DNA of 64,000 bases from Minisyncoccia bacterium (GCA_049294435.1 JBAQCU010000020.1:13110-77109), one strand, 5' to 3'; shown: positions 31,038 to 63,872, numbered from the stretch's first letter. A program made the numbers and translations. Notes: generated by a model from the sequence alone, not told the origin.

Positions 31038-32165
31038 TTAACCTTGGTGACGCATTAAAATTGCTACAATCTGTTCGGCGATTTGCTCGGCAGCATCTGT
31101 GCGCGCAAACGCCCTCGCAGACTTTTTCATCAACGCGCGCTTGTTGTTGTCATTCATTAAATTCTCAATCTCTGACATCAAAATATTCGGTCCCATATTT
31201 GACTCTTCTATAACCACGGCACCACCTGCGCGCGCGTAAGCAAACGCATTCTTCCTCTGATGATCGCCAACGTGATTTGCAATGGGAATAAGAATAGATG
31301 GAATCTCCCACGCTGCAATTTCAAAAATTGCAGACCCTGCTCGCGACACGATAATAGTCGCCTCCTCCGCGGCTAGTTTCATTGTTTGATTATCAAGATA
31401 CCCATAAATATGGTAGCGTGACGCATTTGCATTACCGCTCAAAAGTCCGCTTACCGTAGTTTTTACGTCTTCCATGTTTGCCTCTCCTGTCTGGTGGATA
31501 ACTTGATATTTTTCCACAAGACGAGGTGAGAGAGTTTCCATTTGACTATTGATAACGCGCGCGCCTTGAGAGCCGCCAAGAACAAGGAGTGTTGGAATAC
31601 CTTGCTCAAGATCAAGCTCTTTTAGAGCATTCTTTCCCGAAGGGCGCAGAATTTCCTCGCGAATCGGGTTACCTGTGAGAGCCGTGCGACCCTCTGGAAA
31701 AAATTGCGCCGCTTCAGCGTATGAGATGGCGATTTTTTGCGCAAACTTACCAGCCCATGTATTTACGCGACCTGGCGCGCTGTCAGATTCATGAATAATA
31801 ACAGGAATGCGAAATAGTTTCGCAGCAACCAAAGTTGGGAAACTTGCAAAACCTCCTTTACTAAATACAACATCAGGATATAACACAAACATTTGAAAAA
31901 TTGACTTTAGTACCCCCCAACCAGTTTTAAAGAAATCAAAAAAATTTTGTAAGGAAAAGTATGTTCGTCTCTTCCCTGCTGTTACGGCCTTAAATTTGAT
32001 TTTGTTGTCAAAAAGCATCCGCTCATTGTATGGCTCGGTAGACAAATAGAACATCAGAACATTCGCGATTTTTTCGCGTACAAGGAGTTGGTGCAGTTTT
32101 TGTGCTACAGCAATAATCGGATAAAAGTGACCGCCTGTTCCCCCACCGGTAAATACGATTTTCAT
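31038..32165 (-). CDS. murG: UDP-GlcNAc--lipid I N-acetylglucosaminyltransferase MurG
   Basis: FTGGGTGGHFYP G-loop; GT28 fold. Confidence 0.9.
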   Translation of the reverse strand: MKIVFTGGGTGGHFYPIIAVAQKLHQLLVREKIANVLMFYLSTEPYNERMLFDNKIKFKAVTAGKRRTYFSLQNFFDFFKTGWGVLKSIFQMFVLYPDVVFSKGGFASFPTLVAAKLFRIPVIIHESDSAPGRVNTWAGKFAQKIAISYAEAAQFFPEGRTALTGNPIREEILRPSGKNALKELDLEQGIPTLLVLGGSQGARVINSQMETLSPRLVEKYQVIHQTGEANMEDVKTTVSGLLSGNANASRYHIYGYLDNQTMKLAAEEATIIVSRAGSAIFEIAAWEIPSILIPIANHVGDHQRKNAFAYARAGGAVVIEESNMGPNILMSEIENLMNDNNKRALMKKSARAFARTDAAEQIAEQIVAILMRHQG

Positions 32166-32453
32166 GTTAGTTTTTCATAGTGAGAGAAGCGAGCTTAGTA
32201 AAACTACACCTGGTTAAATGCGATTTTGCAAATCGCGATTTCAAATTCTCTGTTAAACAGCCTGAGAATTTTTTATTATAGTTATGTGATTTTTTCATAA
32301 TAATGTTAATTGTGTTTTTAATTTGAAATCATTTAACTGGGTAAGGAAATTATATAACTTGATACAACATATTCTGCGTTCGCTCGGAAATGCAAACTCC
32401 GTGTTTGTATTTCGCTCGCTCTCTCGCTCTCTTGAATATAGTCGCTTCACTCC
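32166..32453 (-). promoter_or_regulatory. Family 1 structured leader/repeat, copy A (core 32211-32339), filling the ftsW-murG spacer
   Basis: Shares GGTTAAATGCGATTTTGCAAATCGCGATTTCAAATTCTCTGTT at one end and AATTTGAAATCATTTAACTGGG at the other with copies at 63087-63294 and 63655-63872. Strand is given as the sense of the downstream gene. Confidence 0.6.
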
Positions 32454-33551
32454 TTAATTTCTCTTAGAAATATTTAGGAGAATTCCTACCTCAAGGAAAG
32501 CAAATAGTATCGCGGAACCGCCGTGGCTAACAAACACAAGTGGTACGCCAGTAAGCGGTATTAGCCCGAGCATAGCAGCGATATTCGCAAATGACTGCGA
32601 TACTATCAGTATAACAATTCCTACAGCCAAAAGCGACTCAAAAATATTTGGGGTACGTCTCGCAATTTGTATGCCACGAACACCGAACAAAAGAAACAAA
32701 ATTATGATAATCAACCCGCCAATAAACCCAAATTCTTCTCCTACCACCGCAAAAATAGAGTCGCCTGTTGGTTCAGGGAGAGAACCGAATTTTTGTAGAC
32801 TTTGCCCGAAACCACGGCCTGTAATTCCACCTGAACCGATTGCGAGGAGAGATTTTTGAATCTGATAACTCGACCCCTGCGGGTCGTGCGAAGGGTCAAG
32901 GTATGTGAGAATACGCTCGCCAACATATGGACGAGCAAGAGCTAGAGCGCCGACCGCAAGAACACTAATACCTATAATAAGCAAAAAATGACGAATCTTC
33001 ATTCCTGCAGCAAGAAGCATTGCAATCACAGCGGCAAAAAGAACGGCCAATGTGCCGGTGTCTGGCTCTGCAAGCAACACTATAGCAGGGAGAAGCAATA
33101 TTCCGCCAGTGACAGTCAAGGCTGTTTTTAAAGTTTGGATGCGCTCCCTGAGAATTGGCAAAAGTGCGGCGAAATAGATAACAGTACCAAGTTTGAGAAG
33201 CTCGGACGGTTGAAATGTAATGAACCTCAAATCAATCCACCTATGCGCTCCACCGTGTTCCAATCCGACACCAGGCACAAAAACAAAAAGTGTAACGATT
33301 ACGGAACCAATAAAAATATAAAGTGCATTTGTTTGTAGTAATTTTAAATTGACCTTAAACGCAAAAAAAACGGCAATAATAATTCCAAGAAGAAGCCCTA
33401 AAATAACTTGATCAAACAAAAGATCCTTCAAAGAAAATCCCTTTCGCGCAAAAAGCCCAAACGAGGCAGAAGTGAAAACAAAAAGCCCTACTAGTGCAAG
33501 AAGAGCGGTAATTCCAAGAAATATTTTATCTATTGATTGGATTTTTTTCAT
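32454..33551 (-). CDS. ftsW: SEDS-family peptidoglycan glycosyltransferase FtsW/RodA
   Basis: About 10 TM helices and conserved SEDS loops (GSGGITGRGFGQS). Confidence 0.85.
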   Translation of the reverse strand: MKKIQSIDKIFLGITALLALVGLFVFTSASFGLFARKGFSLKDLLFDQVILGLLLGIIIAVFFAFKVNLKLLQTNALYIFIGSVIVTLFVFVPGVGLEHGGAHRWIDLRFITFQPSELLKLGTVIYFAALLPILRERIQTLKTALTVTGGILLLPAIVLLAEPDTGTLAVLFAAVIAMLLAAGMKIRHFLLIIGISVLAVGALALARPYVGERILTYLDPSHDPQGSSYQIQKSLLAIGSGGITGRGFGQSLQKFGSLPEPTGDSIFAVVGEEFGFIGGLIIIILFLLFGVRGIQIARRTPNIFESLLAVGIVILIVSQSFANIAAMLGLIPLTGVPLVFVSHGGSAILFAFLEVGILLNISKRN

Positions 33552-46097: not shown

Positions 46098-46254
46098 AAT
46101 TCAATTATACCATACCAATCGCAAAAATTACCCACGATTTTGTTGAAAACTACTGCAGAGTTCTTTTTTCTTTCAACTCCAAATATACTGACTCCGAATT
46201 TGTGTCTTCGCACCTTTAGTATAAATTTTGATAAATTCACACTGCTTGCTAATA

Positions 46255-46432
46255 CCATCCCCAATTAACCTATGTACAATAATCCAAAAATTTTGGCTGC
46301 GACTTCGAATCAGCTGATTCGTGGCTCGGCCATAAAAGAAAATCCTTTGAAATATCCCGATATTCCTCATATTTTTCTCTTCGTCTCGCTCAAAATTTTG
46401 GAATTCTTTGCACAAGAGTTAATTGGGGATGG
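46255..46432. repeat. 178 bp element bounded by a perfect 15 bp inverted repeat (CCATCCCCAATTAAC / GTTAATTGGGGATGG) with TA dinucleotides outside both ends; contains the 16 bp palindrome CGAATCAGCTGATTCG (46306-46321) and two CAAAATTTTGG boxes
   Basis: Inverted repeats and palindromes read directly from the sequence in the intergenic region between the two histidine kinases. Confidence 0.45.
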
Positions 46433-46462
46433 TATAACATTCTTTGCTATACACCAAACACT

Positions 46463-49417: not shown

Positions 49418-49511
49418 TTTGTTGCTCCTTATAGAGAATCAAAAAGATCATTACTTTCATTGTTCCTTTGAAAACATACATCAAAACACGTTGAAAGTCA
49501 ATGTGAAAATC

Positions 49512-49677
49512 CGTAACCCCTCACACCTACTTCTCAAAAATACAAAAAACAACGAGATTGTCGTCTTTGCGAGCGGGAGCGAAGCAATCCAGGAGCTAAT
49601 CGTTAAACGCTGGATTTCTTCGCAAAGCTCGCAAAGACAAGGATTTTGGGCTAGTGTAGCAGGGGTGTGAGGGGTTA
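49512..49677. repeat. Family 2 nested-palindrome element, copy a: inverted ends GTAACCCCTCACACC / GGTGTGAGGGGTTAC, flanked by the 8 bp direct repeat GAAAATCC (49504-49511 and 49678-49685)
   Basis: Terminal inverted repeat and flanking direct repeat read from the sequence. Inner stems: TCTTTGCGAGC / GCTCGCAAAGA, and GCGAAGCAATCCAG / CTGGATTTCTTCGC. Confidence 0.55.
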
Positions 49678-49701
49678 CGAAAATCCAGCGTAGCATGCTA
49701 C

Positions 49702-53907: not shown

Positions 53908-54013
53908 CTATCAAACAACTTCCAACGGCTCAGATGTAGGGAAGTTCTCTCTTATTTTGCTAGCTATACGTCGCTAATGAGCCGTTCAAATTTTAAATCA
54001 AAGGTACCTGACC

Positions 54014-54134
54014 TGCTCTGTAGAAAACATGGTTGTAGTCTTTGCGAGGCACGAAGCAATCTAGGTTTTACGTGTAATTTTATGGATTGCCACGTCGCAA
54101 GCTCCTCGCAAAGACAGTGTTTTCTACGGAGCAT
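54014..54134. repeat. Family 2 nested-palindrome element, copy b: inverted ends TGCTCTGTAGAAAACA / TGTTTTCTACGGAGCAT, flanked by the 8 bp direct repeat ACCTGACC (54006-54013 and 54135-54142)
   Basis: Inner core (GTCTTTGCGAGG..CGAAGCAATCTAGG..GGATTGCCACGTCG..CTCGCAAAGAC) is homologous to copy a; the outer stem differs in sequence but is still complementary. Confidence 0.55.
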
Positions 54135-54190
54135 ACCTGACCTTATATCGCATCAAAGCATGCTCAAAACTTCACAATTAGCTAGAAATC

Positions 54191-54421
54191 CTAAAGTGTT
54201 CTTTTATAGATTTTGTAAATACGACTTCTGTGGTCAACCATTTTGATTGTGATTACCTTGCCAGAAACCTTGTACAAAACGCGATAATCACCGACACGTA
54301 GTTTGTAAACTCCCTTCAAATCATAATGTAAAAGTTCTGGAATTAAACTAGCATAGTATTCAGCATCCACAGCATCAAGATCCGCAACTGCTCTCTCGTC
54401 CTATTTAACGACCAGCGCCAT
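54191..54421 (-). pseudogene. RelE/ParE-family toxin remnant with an in-frame TAG at codon 7 (MALVVK*DERAVADL..YKLRVGDYRVLYKVSGKVITIKMVDHRSRIYKIY)
   Basis: Manual translation of the minus strand. The C-terminal RVGDYRVLY...HRSxIY pattern is typical of RelE/ParE. TAG is used as a stop elsewhere in the window (e.g. uvrB). Confidence 0.6.
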
Positions 54422-54502
54422 ACTTTTCCGCAACACGGTCATGCGAGATGGGTTTAGACCTCACAGCAAGGCGTATTTTTAATCTATTGATAAACGGCTT
54501 AC

Positions 54503-54601
54503 TTAAAGACAAAAAACTAAACTGTCAGGGTCACCGAGTAATTCATTAAGCTTTTTCTCAACGAGAAAATCTATTTTTTTATCGAGTGCTTTTAAGGTCA
54601 T
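54503..54601 (-). CDS. Short antitoxin-like ORF (32 aa, MTLKALDKKIDFLVEKKLNELLGDPDSLVFCL) directly upstream of the RelE remnant
   Basis: Manual translation; below the ORF-track length cutoff. Its position as the upstream partner of a RelE-like gene suggests an antitoxin. It may be truncated. Confidence 0.3.
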   Translation of the reverse strand: MTLKALDKKIDFLVEKKLNELLGDPDSLVFCL

Positions 54602-54656
54602 ATAAAAATATTACCCCAAAAACTGCCAAAAAGCAACAACATCACCCTTCGCCTTA

Positions 54657-55259
54657 TTATTTCATCGCTCGAAGTTTCTTTGTATATTCCTCCCCACAAT
54701 CAGATTCTAATTCTCCGAGAACAAGTTGAATTGACTTATACTGTCCCGTTGGTATTGAAGAAACATACTTGTATTTTTTATACAATGGTTTATAAAACAT
54801 TCTTAGCAAGAAATGAAGTTCCCAGTGCATATCAAATAGTATCCGATTGCGTTTTTCATTTAATATTTTATTTGAACTATAGCTATTTTCTGGACATCTA
54901 ATATGTACAGTAAGAGGCCCCAATTCATTTCTAAACATTCTTACTGCTGCCTGACGGATATTCCCGTTATCGTGTTGTATCAAATAAAACAACCAAGGGA
55001 AAAGAAAGTCTGGCTCAGCTTCCCTATCGTGCAGAAAATATATTACTGACACCGCCATAGCAAAATTCTCCTGTCTCCAATCTTCACTAATAGTCACGTA
55101 TACACGGTCAGCACTATTAATAATTTTCTTCATTTCAATAAACTCTTCTTTTCCGCTTTTTGAACTATACAAAAATTTACGAACACTCCTCGCAGCCTCC
55201 CTGCTGGATTGCCTGTCCCCCTCTAATATAATTTTAAACAAAGCATTAAATGACTGCAT
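54657..55259 (-). CDS. Hypothetical protein (200 aa)
   Basis: ORF with a TATAAT box and a ribosome-binding site upstream. No confident domain. Confidence 0.5.
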   Translation of the reverse strand: MQSFNALFKIILEGDRQSSREAARSVRKFLYSSKSGKEEFIEMKKIINSADRVYVTISEDWRQENFAMAVSVIYFLHDREAEPDFLFPWLFYLIQHDNGNIRQAAVRMFRNELGPLTVHIRCPENSYSSNKILNEKRNRILFDMHWELHFLLRMFYKPLYKKYKYVSSIPTGQYKSIQLVLGELESDCGEEYTKKLRAMK

Positions 55260-55314
55260 AGTTTTGTTTATTTTTTACCTTCTTTCTCCATATATTTCAT
55301 TCTATTATACACTC

Positions 55315-55620
55315 TTATACGGATAAGGCACTAAAATCAACCGTGTCACCGTCAAAAAGAATTGAATGGTCTCTAGGCGGGATGCCGTTGATTGAAAACC
55401 CAATTAAACCTGGCGGATATTTTTCTTCAATCTCCGGGCACTCCATAAAAACATTCATCAGTAAGTACAAAAAAGATGCCCCTTCGCTAATTATTACTGA
55501 GTGCCCCTCATTCCCCGTAATCTTCTGTAGCTCTTTATCGAAGCGGACATTGACACTCATTGCCCTTGGCATACCGTGCATCTCTGATTTTTCATTTGTA
55601 ATCTTTTTCATACATTTCAT
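55315..55620 (-). CDS. Ubiquitin-fold (MoaD/ThiS / Ub-Mut7C-like beta-grasp) small protein, without a C-terminal GG
   Basis: Core MSVNVRFDKEL..GASFLYLL..INGIPPRDHSILFDGDTVDF matches the beta-grasp sulfur-carrier pattern. Begins MKCMKK, as RhuM does. Confidence 0.45.
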   Translation of the reverse strand: MKCMKKITNEKSEMHGMPRAMSVNVRFDKELQKITGNEGHSVIISEGASFLYLLMNVFMECPEIEEKYPPGLIGFSINGIPPRDHSILFDGDTVDFSALSV

Positions 55621-55764
55621 TCTACCCTAAAACATTTTGTGCTCAAAATGTTCGGGCAACCCGTAACTAGCGGGTTTAACCCTAAACTGTCTTCGGCGGT
55701 CGGGCGACACTGCGAAGCAGGGTTTAGCCACAGACCGCACCTCACCAAAATTTTGATCCTCATC
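55621..55764 (-). promoter_or_regulatory. Family 3 leader, copy 1: shares ~90 bp plus the first four codons (ATGAAATGTATG) with the RhuM leader; hairpin AACATTTTG-tgctc-CAAAATGTT (55631-55653) overlaps the AGGG ribosome-binding site; contains a 47 bp internal duplication
   Basis: Aligned directly against 56770-56880. Confidence 0.55.
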
Positions 55765-56784
55765 TCAATGCCCCTTTTCTTTTGTTCCCTTAACTTTTAA
55801 AAGTTTTTTCACCTCCTTGTCAAAGTCTGAAACATAATTTCTGTCTCTCACCTGCCTGTACTTTTCGTATTCCCTAAAAGCCAACGTTTCCGCATCCTTT
55901 GCGCTCACCGTACCCGCAGTATGCAATAGTTTCTTTTCAGAGATTGTCAGAAATTCATCGAGCTTTATAATCCAATCTTGCATTTTCATGAGTCGCCCAC
56001 TAGAAGCCTGCAAATCTGCAAAATCGATGTACAAAGAAACAATCAAGTTGAGCTGACTTATTTCTGACTCAGATAAATAATTTTTTGCAATAGGAATGTC
56101 TCCTGCGGTAATGTAGTCGTTTTTAAAACTAGTTAATCCCATCAGTGGCTTTCTACTATCAGCACGCTTGGCAATTATTTCTGCGGCGGTAGAACCATGC
56201 ACTGCGTAGTGCATTTTATTTTGTACCATGGCAAAAAACTTTTGAGTTTGCTCCGTGTCTACTTTGTAATCGATGCTAGTTGCGTATATATCAGTGACTT
56301 TCTGATAAAACATACGCTCACTACTGCGAATATCTCTAATTCTCTGTAAAAGTTCTTGGAAATATCTTGCACGGCCATCACCCTGCTTTAATCGTTCATC
56401 ATCCATAGTAAATCCCTTAATCAGGTATTCACGCAACCTCTCCGTTGCCCATATGCGAAATTGAGTCCCCTTATCAGACCGCACTCGATACCCAACGGCC
56501 AAAATAGCATCAAGATTATAATGCTTTGTATCATACTCCTTACCATCTGTAGCAGTTATCCGGAAATTCCGGATAACTGAATTTTCATTTAATTCCAGTT
56601 CTAAAAATATATTTTTTAGATGCTCATTAGCCGTACGTACATCAATAACAAAAAGTTCTGCAATTAATTTTTGCGTTAGCCACACATTTTCATCCTCAAT
56701 TCTAACACGAATTTTTTGATCGTCGCCAAGAATTTGATAGATTGCTATTTGTATTTTTTCTGTTTCCTTCTTCATACATTTCAT
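55765..56784 (-). CDS. RhuM-family virulence/Fic-associated protein
   Basis: ENVWLTQKLIAELFVIDVRTANEHLKNIF and GYRVRSDKGTQFRIWATERLREYLIKGF match conserved RhuM-family blocks. Confidence 0.7.
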   Translation of the reverse strand: MKCMKKETEKIQIAIYQILGDDQKIRVRIEDENVWLTQKLIAELFVIDVRTANEHLKNIFLELELNENSVIRNFRITATDGKEYDTKHYNLDAILAVGYRVRSDKGTQFRIWATERLREYLIKGFTMDDERLKQGDGRARYFQELLQRIRDIRSSERMFYQKVTDIYATSIDYKVDTEQTQKFFAMVQNKMHYAVHGSTAAEIIAKRADSRKPLMGLTSFKNDYITAGDIPIAKNYLSESEISQLNLIVSLYIDFADLQASSGRLMKMQDWIIKLDEFLTISEKKLLHTAGTVSAKDAETLAFREYEKYRQVRDRNYVSDFDKEVKKLLKVKGTKEKGH

Positions 56785-56880
56785 TCTACCCTAAAACATT
56801 TTGTGCTCAAAATGTTCGGGCGACCCGCAACTAGCGGGTTTAGCCACAGGCCTCCTCTCATCAAGATTTTAATCTTCATT
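56785..56880 (-). promoter_or_regulatory. Family 3 leader, copy 2 (upstream of RhuM): hairpins CCCGC-tagtt-GCGGG and AACATTTTG-tgctc-CAAAATGTT (56795-56817) immediately before the ribosome-binding site and ATG
   Basis: Aligned directly against 55606-55745. Confidence 0.55.
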
Positions 56881-56952
56881 TTTGTAATTCCATTTTTAGA
56901 ATTTTAGAAACGAGTGGCTGACCCCCATTTTTCCCATTTTTGACCCCCTTTT

Positions 56953-57624
56953 TCAATCGGAAATGTCCGCTTGTTCCTTAAATATTATTTTCTTTCTGTA
57001 TGCCTTACAATAATTAATTGTAGAACAAATTTCCTTGAAAAGTAATTTTGATTCGTTTTCCTCATAATCATACTCCTCCTCAGACTTACCTTGGAATTTA
57101 TAGTGCAAAAAACTGCTCCTTTTTTCAGAAACCTTCTTAATTAAATTAAAATGTTTTCTGTTAAATTTAGGTAACTTCATAACATCAATTAACCAAGTAA
57201 ACTTACCCTCAAAAGAAACATATTTTAATAATTCCTTAAGCGTACTATTAGGAACATCATTTCTAATAGTCCATATTTGAATAATTTCGTTAATGAAGTG
57301 CTCAAAATACGTTGCCAGAAAAACGTATGCAAGGTTAAAATCATCTTCCTTAACAGATTGTTCAAAACTACTCAAAAGGGTATCTTGATGAATAATTACA
57401 AAATGAGAATGTTTACTTTTTGCACGTTGCCTAACCCATTTTCTGATTTTCTCATCTACCAATTTTTTATTAGAAAGATCAGCGACAACAAGAACTCCAC
57501 AAATTATTGCTGACTCAACAAGTTGAGGAAAAATTTCTTTCAACAATTGGTGACCTTCACTATCTACTGCCATTCCCTCTTTATTAGTTTGCTCCTTTAT
57601 CATAGTGCTATAAAATTTCATCAA
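56953..57624 (-). CDS. Hypothetical protein (223 aa), possibly HEPN-like (R-x4-H: EKRSSFLHY); last gene of the restriction-modification operon
   Basis: Overlaps the 3' end of the RM gene by 17 nt. The Rx4-6H motif alone is weak evidence. Confidence 0.4.
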   Translation of the reverse strand: MMKFYSTMIKEQTNKEGMAVDSEGHQLLKEIFPQLVESAIICGVLVVADLSNKKLVDEKIRKWVRQRAKSKHSHFVIIHQDTLLSSFEQSVKEDDFNLAYVFLATYFEHFINEIIQIWTIRNDVPNSTLKELLKYVSFEGKFTWLIDVMKLPKFNRKHFNLIKKVSEKRSSFLHYKFQGKSEEEYDYEENESKLLFKEICSTINYCKAYRKKIIFKEQADISD

Positions 57625-60600
57625 TCTCCCTCATTACATTATCTGTCTCCGTAAGTACCACAATAATCTTTTGATAGTGTTCGATGTCAGCGTTGGTGAG
57701 CGTGCGGGTTTTGCGGTCTTTCAGCCATTTTTGAGCGGGTTGGTATCCACCGATGTAGAAATTCCATGCGACTTCGGGAACATTGCCAAAATACTGGGTA
57801 TCGTTTATGTAGACATTTCCATTTTCATATTTTATTTTTTCCACAGTGTCACTCCCCGCTACAGGGTATGAAGTAATAAGATTGTTGCATTCGGATGCGG
57901 TCATCAAGTGTAGTTCACGGAGCTTAGTACCAAGAGGCACCAGCTTCCAAAATTCTTCCTTATTTTTTGGATATGGTACGCGTGGAAAATCTGTTTTTAA
58001 AAACTCGCTATATTTAGTGCGGTAGCTTGGTGAATATAGGTATGCATAAATATAGTCCAAAATATTTTCAGGAGTAATCCTAATATCACCGTCTTTTGTA
58101 TTATATTCAGCTACAGGATAATACACACTACCGACAGCTTCAGCAATTTTTCTTGAAATTACTAGATCGATGTTTGGAATTCTTGAAACTCTAATATTTC
58201 CCACCTCGCCAGCATGAAAACTACTGCCAACTTCTGGATAAAGATAGAGTGGAAATGATGCCCCGATTTCAGAAGTTTTATTTGAAACATAACTTGATTC
58301 AACGATATTGTCATGGACTAGAACATGTTGAAACCCCTCAATCTTCTGCTGCCTGCACAACATAAGTCCAATATTTTCCTTATTTATCAAATGTTGCATG
58401 ACGTCCCACCGTCCGCGTTCTACAAACTTCTTATCATAATAAATATATCTTGTATCAAATGGTCTATAATTTATCTTACAAACTTTGCCTTCTTCATAGT
58501 CAAAACTTTGATTATTTGCATAAGCAATAATATTTTTCTTGAGCAATTCCTTATCTTCCGAGATAACGATAGCATCTCGCCCTGTTACTATTCCTACGCT
58601 GGAGGTAGTAAATAATTCACTAACAGAAAAACCTTCACTGTATGCGCCCTTATTTTCTCCTTCCAGCTTCCAAACATCACATTCATCTGGCAGTTTCACC
58701 CACATCACTGTTTCTACACTGGCGATATCGAGCATCTGAAACTTGGCATCTCGTGTGCCATACATATCACTAACATGCACAGTCGCGAGCTTTTTATCTC
58801 TAATATTTAGGAACTTTTTAACTGCCAAAATTATAGACACACCTGACATGATATCAAAAACATTTTCATCTTTTGTTCCGTCTGGACTTATTTCCTTTTT
58901 ACGACTATTGCCGTGTAAGTCAACTACATAAATTTTATCGAATGTGTTTCTCAGATGCCAACGCATTCCGCGGAATGTTGGGTTGTCTATATAGCCATGT
59001 GCAGTAATCATCCCAACAATTCCCTCTCCGTTTTTCTCGATGAGACTCTCGGCAAAACGAATAAACTTAACGTAGTCGTCGTTAATCCATTTACTATTTC
59101 GCTCTTTTAATTTTTCTTTGCCCCCAATTTCAACCTTGTAAACATCATTGTCGGTGTAGTGAGGGTTCATTGATTCACCGCTGTACGGCGGATTCCCAAT
59201 CACACACATAATCGGATACTCGGACTTCACACGCGATGCATTTTTGCTTTCCTCGGCAATACTGTCCATAATTCCGAAAAGTGTATCCTGGGTTGAGTAG
59301 TCAATTGGTGCATCAAGGGTGTTGGTGAGATACACACCGAGGCGGGTATTGATATTATCTGCACCGGTATCGTGAAGTGTCATGCCGAGTTTCAAGTGCG
59401 CGATGGTGTACGAAGCCATCATGAGCTCAAAACCATGCAGGCGTGGCAGGAGGTCGTTTTCTACATACGCAGGCCATCTCCCCTCTTGTCCTTTGAAATT
59501 TTCATGAATATGATTAATTACCTCATTGAGAAAAGTACCTGTCCCTGTGGCGACATCGAGTACCTGCACCTTGTGATATTCTTTTTGAACTTTTACCTCC
59601 TTACTTTTGTTGTTGATTTCTTTTTTCTCAATGATAACCTTGGTTGTATCGGTAAGACCTTTTTCAAGACCAAATTCACTTTTTAGCAGACTGTCGACTG
59701 CTCGCACAATAAACTGCACTACTGGTCGCGGTGTATAGAAAACACCCATTTCCATTTTTTTCTTTGAGTCGTACTCCTTCAAAAAATCTTCGTAGAAGTG
59801 AATGACTGGATCCTTGTCGTCTTTTTCTTTTTGATAGAAATCACGCAGTATTTTTTCTACATCGGCGTGAGTAAAAACTTCACAAAGCTCGTCGACAATA
59901 AATCTCAATTTATCAGGAAAGGATGTACCTGCAATGTGGTCAAAAAATGAGCGTAGAAACGGATTAGTTTTAGGAACAAGCTCGCGCGCTTCGGTACGAG
60001 AAAAATCTTCGGGAGTTGTGTCGTTATAACGTGCTGCAAAAAGCCCATACACGAGAGTTTGTGCATACATATCGGCAAAAGATTCATCGTCAAGACCAGA
60101 AACAAGGTGCTCGCGAACCACATTACGCATTTTGAGCAAGTCAGCATATTTGTGCGAAGGATTCGCAAGCATTTCTCGCACATTGCCTCGAATACGCTGA
60201 GCCTTGCCGCCCATAATCTGAGCAAGATGTTTCCCGCGTTTAATAGGCTCCTTGTGAGACGAAGAAAAGTCTACAAGGGTTTTTGGAAGAAGTGAAAAAT
60301 TTTTAGGGAATGCAGTTATTGTGCGATTGGTTTTGTCGAAACTTGCAATAGCAACAGGCTCGCCGTATCTCTCACCATTGCGATAGAAACGAAATTCAAC
60401 GTAGTCAGTAAGCACAAGATTATCATAACCAAAGTAACGCTCCATTTGGTTACTTTTTTCTATTTTGTCGAGGCTGATGCCTATATCTTTTGCTTCAATG
60501 TAGAGAATGGGTACTCCATTTTTCGAAATAACAAAATCGGGCTTATTCCCATCATCATTTGTTGAATCGTGGTTGATTTGTGTTACCTTGCCATCAGCCT

Positions 60601-60727
60601 GAAAAATTTGTTTCAAGAGCAACTCAAAGTCAGTACGATAAATCATCTCTCTTCCGTTTGAAGCATCCAGACGGGCAAATTTTTGTGCGATATTCTTTAA
60701 ATATTCTTCCATAGTAATTATTGACAC
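57608..60727 (-). CDS. Type IIG/IIL restriction-modification enzyme, MmeI-like: N-terminal PD-ExK nuclease, gamma-class N6-adenine methyltransferase, C-terminal target-recognition domain
   Basis: N-terminus DFVISKNGVPILYIEAKD (D..EAK). MTase motif I VLDVATGTGTFL and motif IV IGNPPYSG. 1039 aa in a single chain. Confidence 0.8.
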   Translation of the reverse strand: MSIITMEEYLKNIAQKFARLDASNGREMIYRTDFELLLKQIFQADGKVTQINHDSTNDDGNKPDFVISKNGVPILYIEAKDIGISLDKIEKSNQMERYFGYDNLVLTDYVEFRFYRNGERYGEPVAIASFDKTNRTITAFPKNFSLLPKTLVDFSSSHKEPIKRGKHLAQIMGGKAQRIRGNVREMLANPSHKYADLLKMRNVVREHLVSGLDDESFADMYAQTLVYGLFAARYNDTTPEDFSRTEARELVPKTNPFLRSFFDHIAGTSFPDKLRFIVDELCEVFTHADVEKILRDFYQKEKDDKDPVIHFYEDFLKEYDSKKKMEMGVFYTPRPVVQFIVRAVDSLLKSEFGLEKGLTDTTKVIIEKKEINNKSKEVKVQKEYHKVQVLDVATGTGTFLNEVINHIHENFKGQEGRWPAYVENDLLPRLHGFELMMASYTIAHLKLGMTLHDTGADNINTRLGVYLTNTLDAPIDYSTQDTLFGIMDSIAEESKNASRVKSEYPIMCVIGNPPYSGESMNPHYTDNDVYKVEIGGKEKLKERNSKWINDDYVKFIRFAESLIEKNGEGIVGMITAHGYIDNPTFRGMRWHLRNTFDKIYVVDLHGNSRKKEISPDGTKDENVFDIMSGVSIILAVKKFLNIRDKKLATVHVSDMYGTRDAKFQMLDIASVETVMWVKLPDECDVWKLEGENKGAYSEGFSVSELFTTSSVGIVTGRDAIVISEDKELLKKNIIAYANNQSFDYEEGKVCKINYRPFDTRYIYYDKKFVERGRWDVMQHLINKENIGLMLCRQQKIEGFQHVLVHDNIVESSYVSNKTSEIGASFPLYLYPEVGSSFHAGEVGNIRVSRIPNIDLVISRKIAEAVGSVYYPVAEYNTKDGDIRITPENILDYIYAYLYSPSYRTKYSEFLKTDFPRVPYPKNKEEFWKLVPLGTKLRELHLMTASECNNLITSYPVAGSDTVEKIKYENGNVYINDTQYFGNVPEVAWNFYIGGYQPAQKWLKDRKTRTLTNADIEHYQKIIVVLTETDNVMREIDEIL

Positions 60728-60734
60728 TATAAAT

Positions 60735-61802
60735 TTAAATCCTCACATACCTCGTACCGCGTCCGCGACCGATACGCCTTATTTTCTTGAGTTCAAGGAG
60801 CCTTTCGACTGATTGTCGAACTGTGCTGAGTGCAATGCCTGTTTTTCCTACTATTTCAGCAACACCCGTTTCGTCTACGCTTGAGATGTACTTCCATACC
60901 GCAAACTGTTTTGGGGAAAGCGTATCTTCAATGTGTTCTTCTTTAAGAAATATGAGTGCTTTTGTTGCCTGTTCTTTGACAACACCGAGAAAGAAGTTGA
61001 GCCATGGAGCAATCGTGTCGTGTTCTGTTCCAAATGTCTCTTGTGATTTTATAAGTGCGACATAGTATTCGTCTTTGCGTCGTTCGACGATTTGCTCATG
61101 AGAAACATACTGCACAAACTGGTATTCAGATCGGAGTAAAAGCAAGTTAGTCATAACGCGCGAAAGACGCCCGTTGCCGTCTTCGAATGGGTGAATTTTT
61201 AAAAATTCAACAAGGAAGTTGGCGATTACAAGCAAAGGATGGAACCGTCGGTCTATAAGTGCGTCGTATGTCCAGTCGACAAGCTCGGTCATTTCTCTAG
61301 GAGCGCGCCATGCTGGAGTTGTTTCAAAAATTACTTTTGCTATAGATTTTCCATCAGGCGCAAGTATGCCGACGGTGTTTTCAATTTTTTTGTACTTGCC
61401 TTTGTGGAGTTTATCTTTGTCAGAATATTTGAGAAGCTCGTTGTGTAGCGAGCCAATCACCCCTTCACGGAGTGGAAGCGTCTGATAACTATCAAAGACA
61501 TTTTGAAGCACTTCAAGGTAGCCCTGCACTTCTTGATAGTCGCGCTCGGCAAGCTTCGATGCCGTGAGTCCCTGCATGACTTTCTCCACTTCTTCGTCGG
61601 AGAGTTTTGACCCCTCAATACGGGTCGATGCACCAGCAGAGGTAACAAGCACCGAGCGTTTGAGGCTGGTAATTGCTTGTGGAGTCATCCGTAGCCCACC
61701 TTTGAACTCCCCTCTCATGCCGTCAATTTCAGCAACAAGAGATAGTATATGAGGCGCGGGCGCTTGAAGCCTGTGATCAAATTTTGTCTTATTTTCGTCC
61801 AT
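60735..61802 (-). CDS. Fic-family protein, class II (N-terminal inhibitory helix with S-x3-E-G) and a C-terminal winged HTH
   Basis: Fic motif HPFEDGNGRLSR; inhibitory motif ASTRIEGS; C-terminal LSTVRQSVERLLELKKIRRIGRGRGTRYV. Its stop lies 7 nt before the RM start. Confidence 0.85.
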   Translation of the reverse strand: MDENKTKFDHRLQAPAPHILSLVAEIDGMRGEFKGGLRMTPQAITSLKRSVLVTSAGASTRIEGSKLSDEEVEKVMQGLTASKLAERDYQEVQGYLEVLQNVFDSYQTLPLREGVIGSLHNELLKYSDKDKLHKGKYKKIENTVGILAPDGKSIAKVIFETTPAWRAPREMTELVDWTYDALIDRRFHPLLVIANFLVEFLKIHPFEDGNGRLSRVMTNLLLLRSEYQFVQYVSHEQIVERRKDEYYVALIKSQETFGTEHDTIAPWLNFFLGVVKEQATKALIFLKEEHIEDTLSPKQFAVWKYISSVDETGVAEIVGKTGIALSTVRQSVERLLELKKIRRIGRGRGTRYVRI

Positions 61803-61873
61803 AATTTACCGCTATACTGTATATAGTTGATTATAGCGGATTATGGCGGGAGAAGTCAATAACAATTTTTGTA

Positions 61874-62000
61874 ACCCCTCACACCTATAGAAAAATTCTA
61901 GAAGACCAGAGTCATTGCGAGTAGATAGCGTCCAAGACGTGAACTTGCTAGTTCAGAAACAATCCATGAGTCCTGGATTGCCACGTCGGAGTACCGACTC
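61874..62000. repeat. Family 2 element, copy c (partial or rearranged): left end GTAACCCCTCACACC is identical to copy a; inner core (TCATTGCGAG..CTGGATTGCCACGTCGG..GACTCGCAAAGACGG) is homologous to copy b; no matching right terminal repeat
   Basis: Read from sequence. Confidence 0.45.
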
Positions 62001-62052
62001 GCAAAGACGGAAAACTAGAGTTTCGTAATTCAAAGTTTATGAGATAGAAGAA

Positions 62053-62086
62053 AGAGCGGGATTGCTGAAGGCAATCCCGCTCTTTT
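62053..62086. terminator. Hairpin AGAGCGGGATTGC-tgaag-GCAATCCCGCTCT with TTTT (plus strand) or TTTCTTCT (minus strand); terminator of the rpsI operon and/or the repeat-region transcript
   Basis: 13 bp perfect stem read from sequence. Confidence 0.55.
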
Positions 62087-62224
62087 AATGTGTAAAATGT
62101 TTCGCTTAGGAAACGTTCAAATATTAGGATGGATGCGAGGCGCTAAAAATTTTTTCGACCAAGGTGTACAAGTGTACATTGCGGGAGAAAAAATTTTATA
62201 GCAACAAAGCAGACACCCAATATT

Positions 62225-62740
62225 TTAACGTTTACTCCATTGTGGGGCCTTACGGGCCTTCTTGAGCCCGAACTTTCGTCGCTCTTTCATTCGTGGGTCG
62301 CGCTTGAGGAAGCCGAGCTTCTTGAGACGCTTGCGTGTCTCCTCATCAAATTCTACGAGCGCTCGCGAGAGTCCGTGGCGAATAGCTTCTGCTTGTGAGT
62401 GAATTCCCCCTCCGATTACCTTTGCAGAAATGGTGAACTTACCTACTACCTTTGACTTTTCGATTGCCTCAGCAATAATATTCTGCATATCTGCTGTAGG
62501 AAAATAGGTTGGTACATCCTTACCGTTTACTACCACTGACTCTTTTGTAGCCTCGGTAATACGAACGCGCGCTGTTGAAGTCTTGCGACGACCAACAGCC
62601 TCAATATATCTTCCGAGAGCAGTTTTAGTAGTCGCTTTTTTTACCGTAGCCTTTTCCTCCGTGGTTTTACTTAGAGTAGGCGCTTTTTTTACAGCCTTAA
62701 ATTTGACTTCTTTTTCTATTGTAGTATCTTTGGTCGTCAT
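62225..62740 (-). CDS. rpsI: 30S ribosomal protein S9 with a ~40 aa Lys/Thr-rich N-terminal extension
   Basis: C-terminus ..GGGIHSQAEAIRHGLSRAL..RDPRMKERRKFGLKKARKAPQWSKR is canonical S9. Confidence 0.9.
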   Translation of the reverse strand: MTTKDTTIEKEVKFKAVKKAPTLSKTTEEKATVKKATTKTALGRYIEAVGRRKTSTARVRITEATKESVVVNGKDVPTYFPTADMQNIIAEAIEKSKVVGKFTISAKVIGGGIHSQAEAIRHGLSRALVEFDEETRKRLKKLGFLKRDPRMKERRKFGLKKARKAPQWSKR

Positions 62741-62741
62741 A

Positions 62742-63086
62742 TTATTCAGTAATTTTTAAATTCTTCATTCGCACTTTATGCAAACGGTTGCGGGGAATCA
62801 TGCGTGAAATTGCGCGGAGGAAAACTTCAGCGTAACCCTTTTTCTCGATGGTGTACCCAACGGTACGCTCACGAAGTCCGCCTGGGTAGCCAGAGTATGT
62901 CTTTGAGTGCACCTCTCCCATCTTTGATGGAGCGATGGTTGCCTTTGAGGCATTTAGAACAATCACTTCTACTGGAGCTACGAGGTGCTTCTGGAATGCG
63001 ACCGAGTTTTTACCCATAAGAACGCTGGCTGCCTCTGTGGCAACACGTCCTACGGATTTTCCTTTTGCGTCAATTTTGTATGTCAT
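62742..63086 (-). CDS. rplM: 50S ribosomal protein L13
   Basis: MTYKIDAKGKSVGRVATEAA.. The ORF track's MEIFKIS.. extension comes from the upstream repeat; the real start is the ATG at 63086. Confidence 0.85.
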   Translation of the reverse strand: MTYKIDAKGKSVGRVATEAASVLMGKNSVAFQKHLVAPVEVIVLNASKATIAPSKMGEVHSKTYSGYPGGLRERTVGYTIEKKGYAEVFLRAISRMIPRNRLHKVRMKNLKITE

Positions 63087-63294
63087 GGTAGATCTTCTTA
63101 GCGAGCAAAGCGAGATTTTGAAAATCTCCACCCGGTTAAATGCGATTTTGTAAATCGCGATTTCAAATTCTCTGTTGAATAATCAGCAGAGGATTTATTA
63201 TCATTACGTGATGCTAACATAAAGTGTGTCATATTACTAATTTGAAATCATTTAACTGGGTTTGAAAATTATAGTCGCTTCCCTCCTTAATTTT
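63087..63294 (-). promoter_or_regulatory. Family 1 structured leader/repeat, copy B (core 63134-63259) between rplQ and rplM
   Basis: Contains, in gene sense: a TATAAT box right after the rplQ stop; the long-range inverted repeat CCCAGTTAAATGATTTCAAATT ... AATTTGAAATC[GCGATTTACAAAATCGC]ATTTAACCGGG; and the palindrome GAGATTTTCAAAATCTC before the ATG. Confidence 0.6.
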
Positions 63295-63654
63295 CTAAAC
63301 GAACTCAATAACCGCCATTTTAGAAGCATCTCCGCCACGACGTGGTAGCTTCACAATACGTGTATAGCCACCGGCGCGCTCTTTGTAGCGAGGCGCAATT
63401 TCATCAATAAGCTTCTTTGCACCTTCCTCTCCAGAGACACCGCCAAGTCGTGAAATAATAAGACGACGTGAAGCAAGGTCTGCTTTGCCACCACGTGTAA
63501 CCAATTTCTCCACGAATGGTCGGAGTTCTTTGGCACGAGCTTCTGTAGTCTCTATATGCTCAGTTTTAATAAGAGAAAGCGCAAGAGAACGTAGAAGCGC
63601 AATGCGTCCTGCGTGATCTCGTCCGAATTTTCGAATTGACTTGTGGTGTTTCAT
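63295..63654 (-). CDS. rplQ: 50S ribosomal protein L17
   Basis: MKHHKSIRKFGRDHAGRIALLRSLA.. is canonical L17. Start at 63654; the ORF-track extension to 63699 is repeat-derived. Confidence 0.9.
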   Translation of the reverse strand: MKHHKSIRKFGRDHAGRIALLRSLALSLIKTEHIETTEARAKELRPFVEKLVTRGGKADLASRRLIISRLGGVSGEEGAKKLIDEIAPRYKERAGGYTRIVKLPRRGGDASKMAVIEFV

Positions 63655-63872
63655 GGTTGATTTTCTTAGCGAGTGAAACGAGATTTTGAAAATCTCCACC
63701 CGGTTAAATGCGATTTTGTAAATCGCGATTTCAAATTCTCTGTTGCATAATTTACGGGGAATTTATAATCGTTGTGTGATACTAGCATAAAGTGTGTCAT
63801 ATTGCCAATTTGAAATCATTTAACTGGGTTCTCAAAAAATACATTAGCTATACTCATTATTTTTTGGAATAA
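63655..63872 (-). promoter_or_regulatory. Family 1 structured leader/repeat, copy C (core 63702-63827) between rpoA and rplQ
   Basis: About 90% identical to copy B over the conserved arms; the central ~65 bp is homologous but more diverged. Confidence 0.6.

Follow-up and report, generated by a model that had tools for sequence, protein, structure and literature searches.

Bacterial MITEs, such as the Correia elements of Neisseria and the RPEs of Rickettsia, are non-coding, intergenic units of 100-200 bp with inverted repeats and a hairpin shape. What defines a MITE family is its conserved ends, which match a transposase, and Correia elements duplicate TA. REPINs consist of two inverted short motifs separated by a short spacer, form a long hairpin, and are non-autonomous, dispersed and intergenic; RAYT is a single-copy Y1 HUH transposase gene flanked by its own REP motif, and REPs also occur in BIME-like arrays. 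REPINs are not known to possess a terminal wrapper or a target-site duplication, and REPs are lineage-specific. The association of REP/REPIN doublets with RAYT transposases was reportedly worked out by Nunvar in 2010 and by Bertels and Rainey in 2011.

The first description of Ssn nucleases, together with their repeats, dates from 2025 (PMC11893778). NTS repeats have the sequence CGTCATTCCCGCGMAVGCGGGAATCYRG, and Ssn-related motifs (SRM) flank single-domain GIY-YIG genes (Chenal et al. 2025, Nat Commun, PMC11893778). As characterized in that paper, SsnA is a site-specific nuclease; it requires the repeat hairpin to be single-stranded DNA for binding, does not bind RNA, and makes its cut just upstream of the hairpin, ~3 nt from the motif. 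The NTS-ssnA-NTS arrangement in Neisseria modulates transformation (PMC11893778).

The window, meaning the whole 64-kb stretch of DNA analysed here, comes, as its DnaJ shows, from a Patescibacteria (Minisyncoccia) MAG, and the nearest relatives by DnaJ belong to Candidatus Yonathbacteria (81-85% identity). It carries three palindromic elements, copies a, b and c, whose shared homologous core had been proposed from inspection of the sequence and was recovered at all three sites. The features are given below, here and in later lists without assigned strand unless one is stated.

49513-49678: copy a, whole element, 166 bp, non-coding, folding as a single long hairpin
49505-49512: copy a, left target-site duplication GAAAATCC, 8 bp, read directly, abutting the arm
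49513-49527 and 49664-49678: copy a, terminal inverted repeats GTAACCCCTCACACC, 15/15 complementary
49563-49638: copy a, core doublet, with half (+) at 49562-49593, a loop, and half (-) at 49609-49639
49679-49686: copy a, right target-site duplication GAAAATCC, 8 bp, the identical 8-mer, abutting the arm
54014-54133: copy b, whole element, 120 bp, non-coding
54005-54013: copy b, left target-site duplication TACCTGACC, 9 bp, abutting the arm
54014-54029 and 54118-54133: copy b, terminal inverted repeats TGCTCTGTAGAAAACA, 15/16 complementary with one T.G mismatch
54038-54115: copy b, core doublet, heterotypic, with a CGAAG-type left half and a CGTGG-type right half
54134-54142: copy b, right target-site duplication TACCTGACC, 9 bp, abutting the arm
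61871-62036: copy c, chimeric element with arms of two repeat types and no target-site duplication
61871-61885: copy c, left arm, a-type, matching the left arm of copy a
61911-62008: copy c, core doublet, left half with an extra hairpin insert as in loci L011 and L094, right half of CGTGG type
62019-62036: copy c, right arm, E14-type ACTTTGAATTACGAAACT, an 18/18 exact match to a repeat in a related MAG

For copy a, the sequence-only reading had the element right and its position one base too low, and both the perfect complementarity of the inverted repeat and the abutting 8-bp direct repeat hold at the corrected coordinates; spacers of 35 and 25 nt separate the arms from the core. For copy b, it was correct that the outer arms are complementary and abutted by a perfect direct repeat, but the pairing is imperfect at the one T.G position and the repeat measures 9 bp instead of 8 bp. 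The 8-mer AAGTCAAT occurs at 49495-49502 and 61853-61860, exactly 10 nt beyond the left arms of copies a and c, and beside copy a it lies outside the target-site duplication. On the minus strand it supplies a TTGACT -35-like box before a gene of 379 aa and before the Fic gene; it could represent a target preference, an outward promoter context or chance.

With at most one mismatch, GTCTTTGCGAG matches the window 10 times against 1.14 expected, a count that 0 of 100 shuffles reached, and 6 of the 10 matches are the three arm pairs of copies a, b and c. Other S1-like matches (11902, 22155, 23884, 34920 and 55201) fall in coding sequence and were dismissed as chance. A half-motif profile run over the 64 kb returned exactly six halves, which form the three doublets, and no other significant match. 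Each core consists of two inverted copies of a single oriented half-motif of 30-45 nt: 5'-CGTC[A/T]TTGCGA, a variable mini-hairpin (often GC-GNA-GC), then GAAGCAATCC, or GAAGCAATC[C/T]-3' in an alternative notation. Across 496 halves, C occupies position -1 in 74% and is followed by GTC[A/T]TTGCGA, a linker and GCAATC[C/T]. The linker usually reads G-[G/C]...GNA... and closes as GC-GNA-GC, the stable d(GCGAAGC) type of DNA mini-hairpin. Other linkers are longer hairpins with varying stems (TCGG-TACT-CCGA or CCCGCC...GGCGGG), and they covary, as in GGTC-TTT-GACC versus GGCC-TTT-GGCC in two copies of one element family. Of 217 distinct halves folded with RNA energy parameters, 130 were predicted to form the outer TTGC/GCAA stem and 128 an inner hairpin. 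Among 98 parsed doublets, the two linkers are identical in 26 and different in length in 64, and in copies b and c a CGAAG-type half is paired with a CGTGG-type half, leaving A.A and A.C mismatches. Since the halves of a doublet are so often of different subtypes (64/98), they behave as independent modules.

We scanned one genome per species, 596 Gb in total, with the exact pattern GTCTTTGCGAG-N50-80-CTCGCAAAGAC and found it at at least 119 loci in more than 10 phyla, where rough arithmetic predicts ~1 by chance. The core is not specific to the genome of the window. Hosts among the matches listed include Legionella, Methylobacterium, Sphingomonadales, Burkholderiales and several Bacteroidota, as well as Chloroflexota, Acidobacteriota, Clostridia, Planctomycetota and several Patescibacteria. 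The interior is also conserved among the matches listed, with the consensus GTCTTTGCGAG-CGAAG-CGAAGCAATCCAG, a variable loop and CTGGATTGCTTCG-CTTCG-CTCGCAAAGAC, and tandem arrays of cores are present in L016, L007 and L056. The sequence-only reading saw the homology of the three cores correctly but missed the broader identity, a cross-phylum repeat tied to GIY-YIG (Ssn-type) nuclease genes. IMG/VR gave 0 matches to the exact GTCTTTGCGAG...CTCGCAAAGAC pattern, a plasmid collection was matched by the core only and by nothing of the wrapper sequences beyond it, and a literature text search with words of the core sequence retrieved only unrelated primers. Clustering of ORFs beside the cores of 119 loci gave no families other than translations of the hairpin itself.

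A second palindromic repeat family is present at 32159-32460, 63074-63298 and 63646-63841, with inner repeat ACCCGGTTAAATGCGATTTCAAATT / AATTTGAAATCATTTAACTGGGT. Its copies lie beside or inside the rplM-rplQ region, it also occurs in the CPR loci L036, L060, L084 and L023, and its outer arms contain CGAGCGAAGCGA, a 12-mer identical to the S1-linker part of the core.

The half-motif is linked to a nuclease gene: among ORFs in the fetched loci, phmmer with GIY-YIG query sequences identified genes embedded among half-motifs in L007 and L003, both encoding proteins with Pfam GIY-YIG (PF01541) as sole domain. Similarly, the Pfam GIY-YIG gene of L121, the sole locus from an IMG/VR protein search, lies between a (+) half and a (-) half. 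For an unbiased test, 80 metagenomic loci were picked solely by protein similarity to a ~97-aa single-domain GIY-YIG protein. A half-motif was located within 300 nt of the GIY-YIG gene in 61 of the 80 loci and on both sides of it in 39, and the nearest pair faced inward (+,-) in 22 of these 39. Half-motif density was 3.9/kb near the gene versus 0.22/kb further out, revealing an 18-fold local enrichment. The ~97-aa protein shares 45.7% identity, across 95% of its length, with the product of a gene of N. gonorrhoeae that has nine copies of NTS no more than 600 bp away, the NTS-ssnA-NTS arrangement described by Chenal et al. 2025 (PMC11893778). In the PDB, only the UPF0213 structure 1zg2 matches, and it is not informative here.

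The SRM pattern given in the 2025 paper, HGTCWYN(0-2)YYVSBRHN(0-5)WNVSBRGN(0-2)RNCYNB (PMC11893778), does recognise a canonical NTS sequence used as a test and, among the fetched loci, 18 sites; it has 0 matches in the window and matches none of the half-motifs, including those of the 80 GIY-YIG loci. The canonical SRM form co-occurs in some of the at least 119 core loci. Because the half-motif flanks GIY-YIG genes homologous to the NTS-flanked gonococcal gene, these data go most of the way towards establishing that the core is a doublet without a gene, built from an Ssn-type repeat whose variant class the published SRM pattern does not cover. The inner layer would then be the GIY-YIG-flanking repeat pair minus its gene, standing to it as a REPIN stands to RAYT or a MITE to its IS: the gene usually sits between two inward-facing halves, and the doublet would keep that arrangement without it. 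By analogy with SsnA, a half in single-stranded DNA would adopt a small hairpin, to be bound and cut just 5' of CGTC by a cognate nuclease whose gene would lie elsewhere in the genome. No GIY-YIG gene was found in the 64-kb window and no cognate one in any fetched Patescibacteria locus, so action in trans is assumed for this genome; from the same analogy we infer both nuclease activity on the half-motif and its action here. A search for literature on GIY-YIG proteins with MITEs, or for Ssn follow-ups, found none beyond PMC11893778. On plasmid pNL2 of Novosphingobium aromaticivorans (L210, 305274-305600), a GIY-YIG gene is flanked by another CGTC-hairpin variant, CGTCGCCCCGTGCTTGACACGGGGC, which neither the half-motif pattern nor the published SRM regular expression matches in that locus. 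Ssn-type repeats may therefore comprise more classes than the published pattern covers.

The outer layer was examined in a larger set of cores, and an outer inverted repeat was found around 27 of 122. A search for inverted repeats with abutting direct repeats, allowing for boundary shifts, recovered the following.

Window copy a: inverted repeat and 8-bp direct repeat
Window copy b: inverted repeat and 9-bp direct repeat
L052: inverted repeat and 8-bp direct repeat
L023: inverted repeat and 7-bp direct repeat
L001, L006 and L087 (Legionella MAGs): inverted repeats and 8-9-bp direct repeats of three different sequences

The three Legionella loci have one repeat type (AATGGCACTTACTTAAGG) and one core in common while their duplications differ, which is the trace expected of a unit that transposes. 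Direct repeats of at least 9 bp flank 20% of cores versus 2% in a flank-swapped control, some of them being array spacers, as are many long direct repeats outside wrappers (L007, L012, L016 and L056). Duplications around gene-bearing units or hugging bare doublets did not rise above the control. Since neither of these shows an excess and ~75% of cores have no wrapper, the duplications belong to the wrapper layer. Wrapper ends lie 18-65 nt from the core, as compared with the SsnA cut reported at ~3 nt from the motif (PMC11893778).

The window contains one further element of this kind.

46250-46437: fourth, decayed relative, with arms TACCATCCCCAATTAACC at 46253-46270 and 46417-46434 and TAA on either side

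Its repeat type is TACCATCNCCAATTAACC, and the same arms recur in core-bearing elements of three other CPR MAGs (L042, L100 and L108). The element folds with z = -6.9 and its interior resembles the core weakly; the profile detects no half-motif in it, and it may be a wrapper without a core. The flank type thus varies, with TAA at this element and for the type of its relatives versus 8-9 bp elsewhere.

Copies a and b share with MITEs a short non-coding body, terminal inverted repeats and target-site duplications that differ in sequence between copies, whereas the ends of copy c do not match and it has no duplication. Ends common to the family and an autonomous IS were not found: the arms of copies a and b differ, and the 64-kb window encodes no transposase. 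An IMG/VR search with wrapper arms produced one match, which lies in coding sequence and was rejected as chance. The MITE reading offered from the sequence is nonetheless supported, as inverted repeats with 8-9-bp duplications recur in other genomes and the motif is absent from syntenic relatives. Two checks had been proposed for it, direct repeats at other copies and fixation at syntenic positions; direct repeats are present at L052, L023, L001, L006 and L087, and the motif is absent from the syntenic region of four relatives. Overall, the three elements are real, non-coding mobile DNA palindromes.

We regard it as probable that they are two-layer, non-autonomous units, in which an Ssn-type doublet core sits inside an inverted-repeat wrapper with target-site duplications. 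The doublet is enclosed by terminal inverted repeats that differ from copy to copy. Given the 8-9-bp duplications of the target site at copies a and b, the wrapper would have been inserted together with its core, by transposition with a staggered cut of the target. Recombination through the shared core would account for the chimeric copy c. The same core is found in wrappers of at least seven unrelated repeat types, which is hard to reconcile with a single sequence-specific transposase.

The diversity of wrappers raises the question of whether the two layers arrived separately. In a nested-insertion scenario, the wrappers are unrelated MITEs of different IS families, and the doublet was inserted at the apex of the palindrome once per family before that family spread. 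The unrelated wrapper types and their differing flanks (direct repeats of 8-9 bp at a, b and L052 and in the Legionella type versus TAA in the 46250 type), the wrapper at 46250-46437 with no recognisable core, the large share of unwrapped cores and the existence of chimeras and nested arrangements (copy c and L064) all agree with such a history. Furthermore, a hairpin apex would supply the single-stranded DNA that SsnA is described as requiring (PMC11893778). However, nine wrapper types always lie within 80 nt of a core in the fetched loci, apart from weak matches and the decayed 46250 copy, although this co-occurrence comes from a biased sample because the loci were selected for cores; a core-less wrapper family was likewise not found in those core-selected loci. 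The scenario also needs at least seven independent insertions at MITE centres in small genomes, and the core is off-centre in several copies, such as copy a (35/25 nt) and L052 (42/3 nt). We consider nested insertion a real but minority possibility.

Alternatively, the agent that moves wrapped doublets could be the Ssn-type GIY-YIG nuclease or else a host pathway that acts on the hairpin this nuclease creates. The foot of a long DNA hairpin, in place of a sequence specific to a transposase, would then set the ends, and this would explain how ends that are unrelated yet self-complementary come to share the same core and carry 8-9-bp duplications. We judge this mode of movement unlikely; if it were true, it would constitute a new class of prokaryotic transposition, driven by a GIY-YIG single-strand nuclease, in ultra-small CPR genomes.

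The sequence-only reading had also entertained a small structured RNA whose outer helix covaries between copies, to which a cis-acting RNA hairpin (terminator or mRNA stabiliser) may be added. The folds are indeed very stable against shuffled sequences (z-scores of -9.2, -5.2 and -3.7 for copies a, b and c), the outer helices differ in sequence yet remain complementary, the single arm mismatch of copy b is a T.G pair, copy a follows dnaJ immediately, on the strand that is transcribed, and copy c neighbours the rpsI terminator. In contrast, an RNA would not account for the perfect 8-9-bp direct repeats that flank the helices. The mismatches seen in other wrappers (C.A, G.G and T.C) are not wobble pairs, both arms are conserved in sequence across phyla beyond mere pairing, and the elements are absent from syntenic sites of relatives. 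The long core helix is not kept by compensatory change, given that 64 of 98 doublets have linkers of unequal length that do not complement each other. No Rfam family matched at gathering score or at E<=1, a terminator scan did not flag the elements, and SsnA is reported not to bind RNA (PMC11893778). The covarying RNA was therefore not borne out, and we hold an RNA function to be extremely improbable, while a side effect on dnaJ mRNA through strong hairpins in read-through transcripts is possible.

The two-layer reading extends to copy c, for which an earlier claim that it keeps the left end of copy a was accurate; the right end is not missing, as had been thought, but is the arm at 62019-62036 of a different repeat type. 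The stretch 61973-62036 is 92-94% identical to five loci of GCA_030649835.1. No direct repeat was found flanking copy c, as expected for a chimera. The suggestion that it arose by recombination between copies through the shared core is supported by these arms of two repeat types, albeit with a foreign right end. The strong intrinsic terminator noticed after copy c is the rpsI terminator, at 62051-62085. Its stem, GCGGGATTGC / GCAATCCCGC, carries the inner-stem words of the core, GGATTGC/GCAATCC, in reversed order. Just past rpsI, at 62100-62225, is a palindromic stretch (AATATTG...CAATGTACA/TGTACA...CTAATATT) that has the same position in L206 (3075-3200), which suggests a syntenic structured element, unlike the mobile copies.

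Gene order was compared with that of relatives, where L204 and L206 share the string rpsK-rpsD-rpoA-rplQ-rplM-rpsI-grpE-dnaK-dnaJ with only ~100-160 bp between rpsI and grpE. In the window, these two genes, which adjoin in relatives, are split by an 8-kb accessory island, annotated with Pfam as follows.

54143-61870, minus strand: accessory island, bracketed by copies b and c, between rpsI and grpE
60735-61802: Fic gene, in the island
57608-60727: Type ISP restriction-modification enzyme, 1039 aa, in the island
55765-56784: RhuM gene, in the island

The island also holds four hypothetical genes. The regions upstream of the RhuM gene and of a neighbouring 101-aa ORF (55590-55681 and 56754-56845) are 89% identical to each other. 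Copy c forms the border on the rpsI side and copy b that on the grpE side, in the same orientation, and copy a is placed after dnaJ; copies b and c thereby mark the borders of the accessory island.

Such placement would fit recombination scars, that is, attachment-like sites left by site-specific integration of the island with the direct repeats as crossover sequences, and the bracketing of the 8-kb island at the rpsI-grpE junction by equally oriented copies, one of them recombinant, speaks for it. Against this, the direct repeats flank single elements rather than the island and are not the same at a as at b, copy a lies away from the island borders, Pfam annotation reveals no integrase or recombinase gene in the island, and other phyla carry this core at hundreds of unrelated sites and also as tandem arrays. 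We deem this origin very unlikely.

The half-motif is absent from the fetched loci of relatives (L202-L207), including the syntenic rpsI-grpE-dnaK-dnaJ region of four of them, and because of this absence the copies are lineage-specific insertions and not conserved regulatory sites. DnaJ identity to relatives whose syntenic operon is free of the motif amounts to 83-85%. The empty junctions predicted for copies a and b are AATGTGAAAATCCAGCGTAGC and AAAGGTACCTGACCTTATATCG, respectively; a base-exact empty site was not recovered in the relatives because the genes beside dnaJ differ there. The exact DnaJ protein was found in just one other assembly, which ends inside cores a and b, so that an independent assembly of the same genome breaks where a multi-copy repeat would be expected to break it. 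The closest relative (L202, GCA_030649835.1, 7560-7949) has, ~580 bp beyond the end of dnaJ on the downstream side, a different GIY-YIG gene of 86 aa, and the inverted repeat that flanks this gene (CGTTAGAGAyCCC...GCC) is one of its own and absent from the window. L204 (7908-8585) and L206 (11166-11852) each have a 225-aa Y1_Tnp (IS200/RAYT-like) gene near dnaJ.

An Ssn-type repeat inside units with target-site duplications offers direct sequence evidence of transposition-like spread, and the host range of this variant repeat includes Patescibacteria and Legionella. The motif is widespread, breaks assemblies and is translated into spurious ORFs, so recognising it improves annotation. Many CPR bacteria rely on DNA uptake. 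The copies bracket a defence island within a conserved string of ribosomal-protein and chaperone genes, which echoes the NTS-gene-NTS arrangement that modulates transformation in Neisseria.

Compared with the systems introduced above, the elements resemble MITEs in size, lack of coding capacity, terminal inverted repeats, target-site duplication, hairpin shape and siting by genes and islands. They differ in that the ends vary while the centre is conserved, no cognate IS was found, and the duplication of copies a and b is 8-9 bp as opposed to the TA of Correia elements. With REPINs they share the inverted doublet hairpin, dispersal, arrays and a cognate gene flanked by the motif, but the gene here is a GIY-YIG nuclease and not a Y1 HUH transposase, and the motif is conserved across phyla; Y1_Tnp genes do occur in loci of relatives, but the motif is absent from those loci. 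The closest likeness is to the NTS/SRM-SsnA system as presented by Chenal et al.: an oriented hairpin repeat that starts with CGTC[A/T]T and ends in AATC[C/T]RG (AATCCAG here), flanking of a ~95-aa GIY-YIG gene on both sides (39/80 here versus 42% in the paper), and many dispersed copies and arrays across phyla (PMC11893778). Like an SRM, the half-motif is an oriented hairpin in which CGTC on the 5' side and a C immediately 3' of the palindrome are conserved. In contrast to the G+C-rich CCCGCG/GCGGG stem described for that system (PMC11893778), the hairpin here is TTGC-GA-[mini-hairpin]-GAA-GCAA, the published SRM pattern does not match the half-motif, and the usual genomic form is a tight inverted doublet. 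The host, moreover, is a Patescibacteria MAG, and the half-motif would be a nuclease target by analogy. Wrappers with terminal inverted repeats and 8-9-bp duplications, as seen here, do not feature in the portions of PMC11893778 on which this comparison draws. New here are the assignment of the core as a variant-class Ssn-type repeat, its spread across phyla and its packaging in duplication-bearing wrappers.
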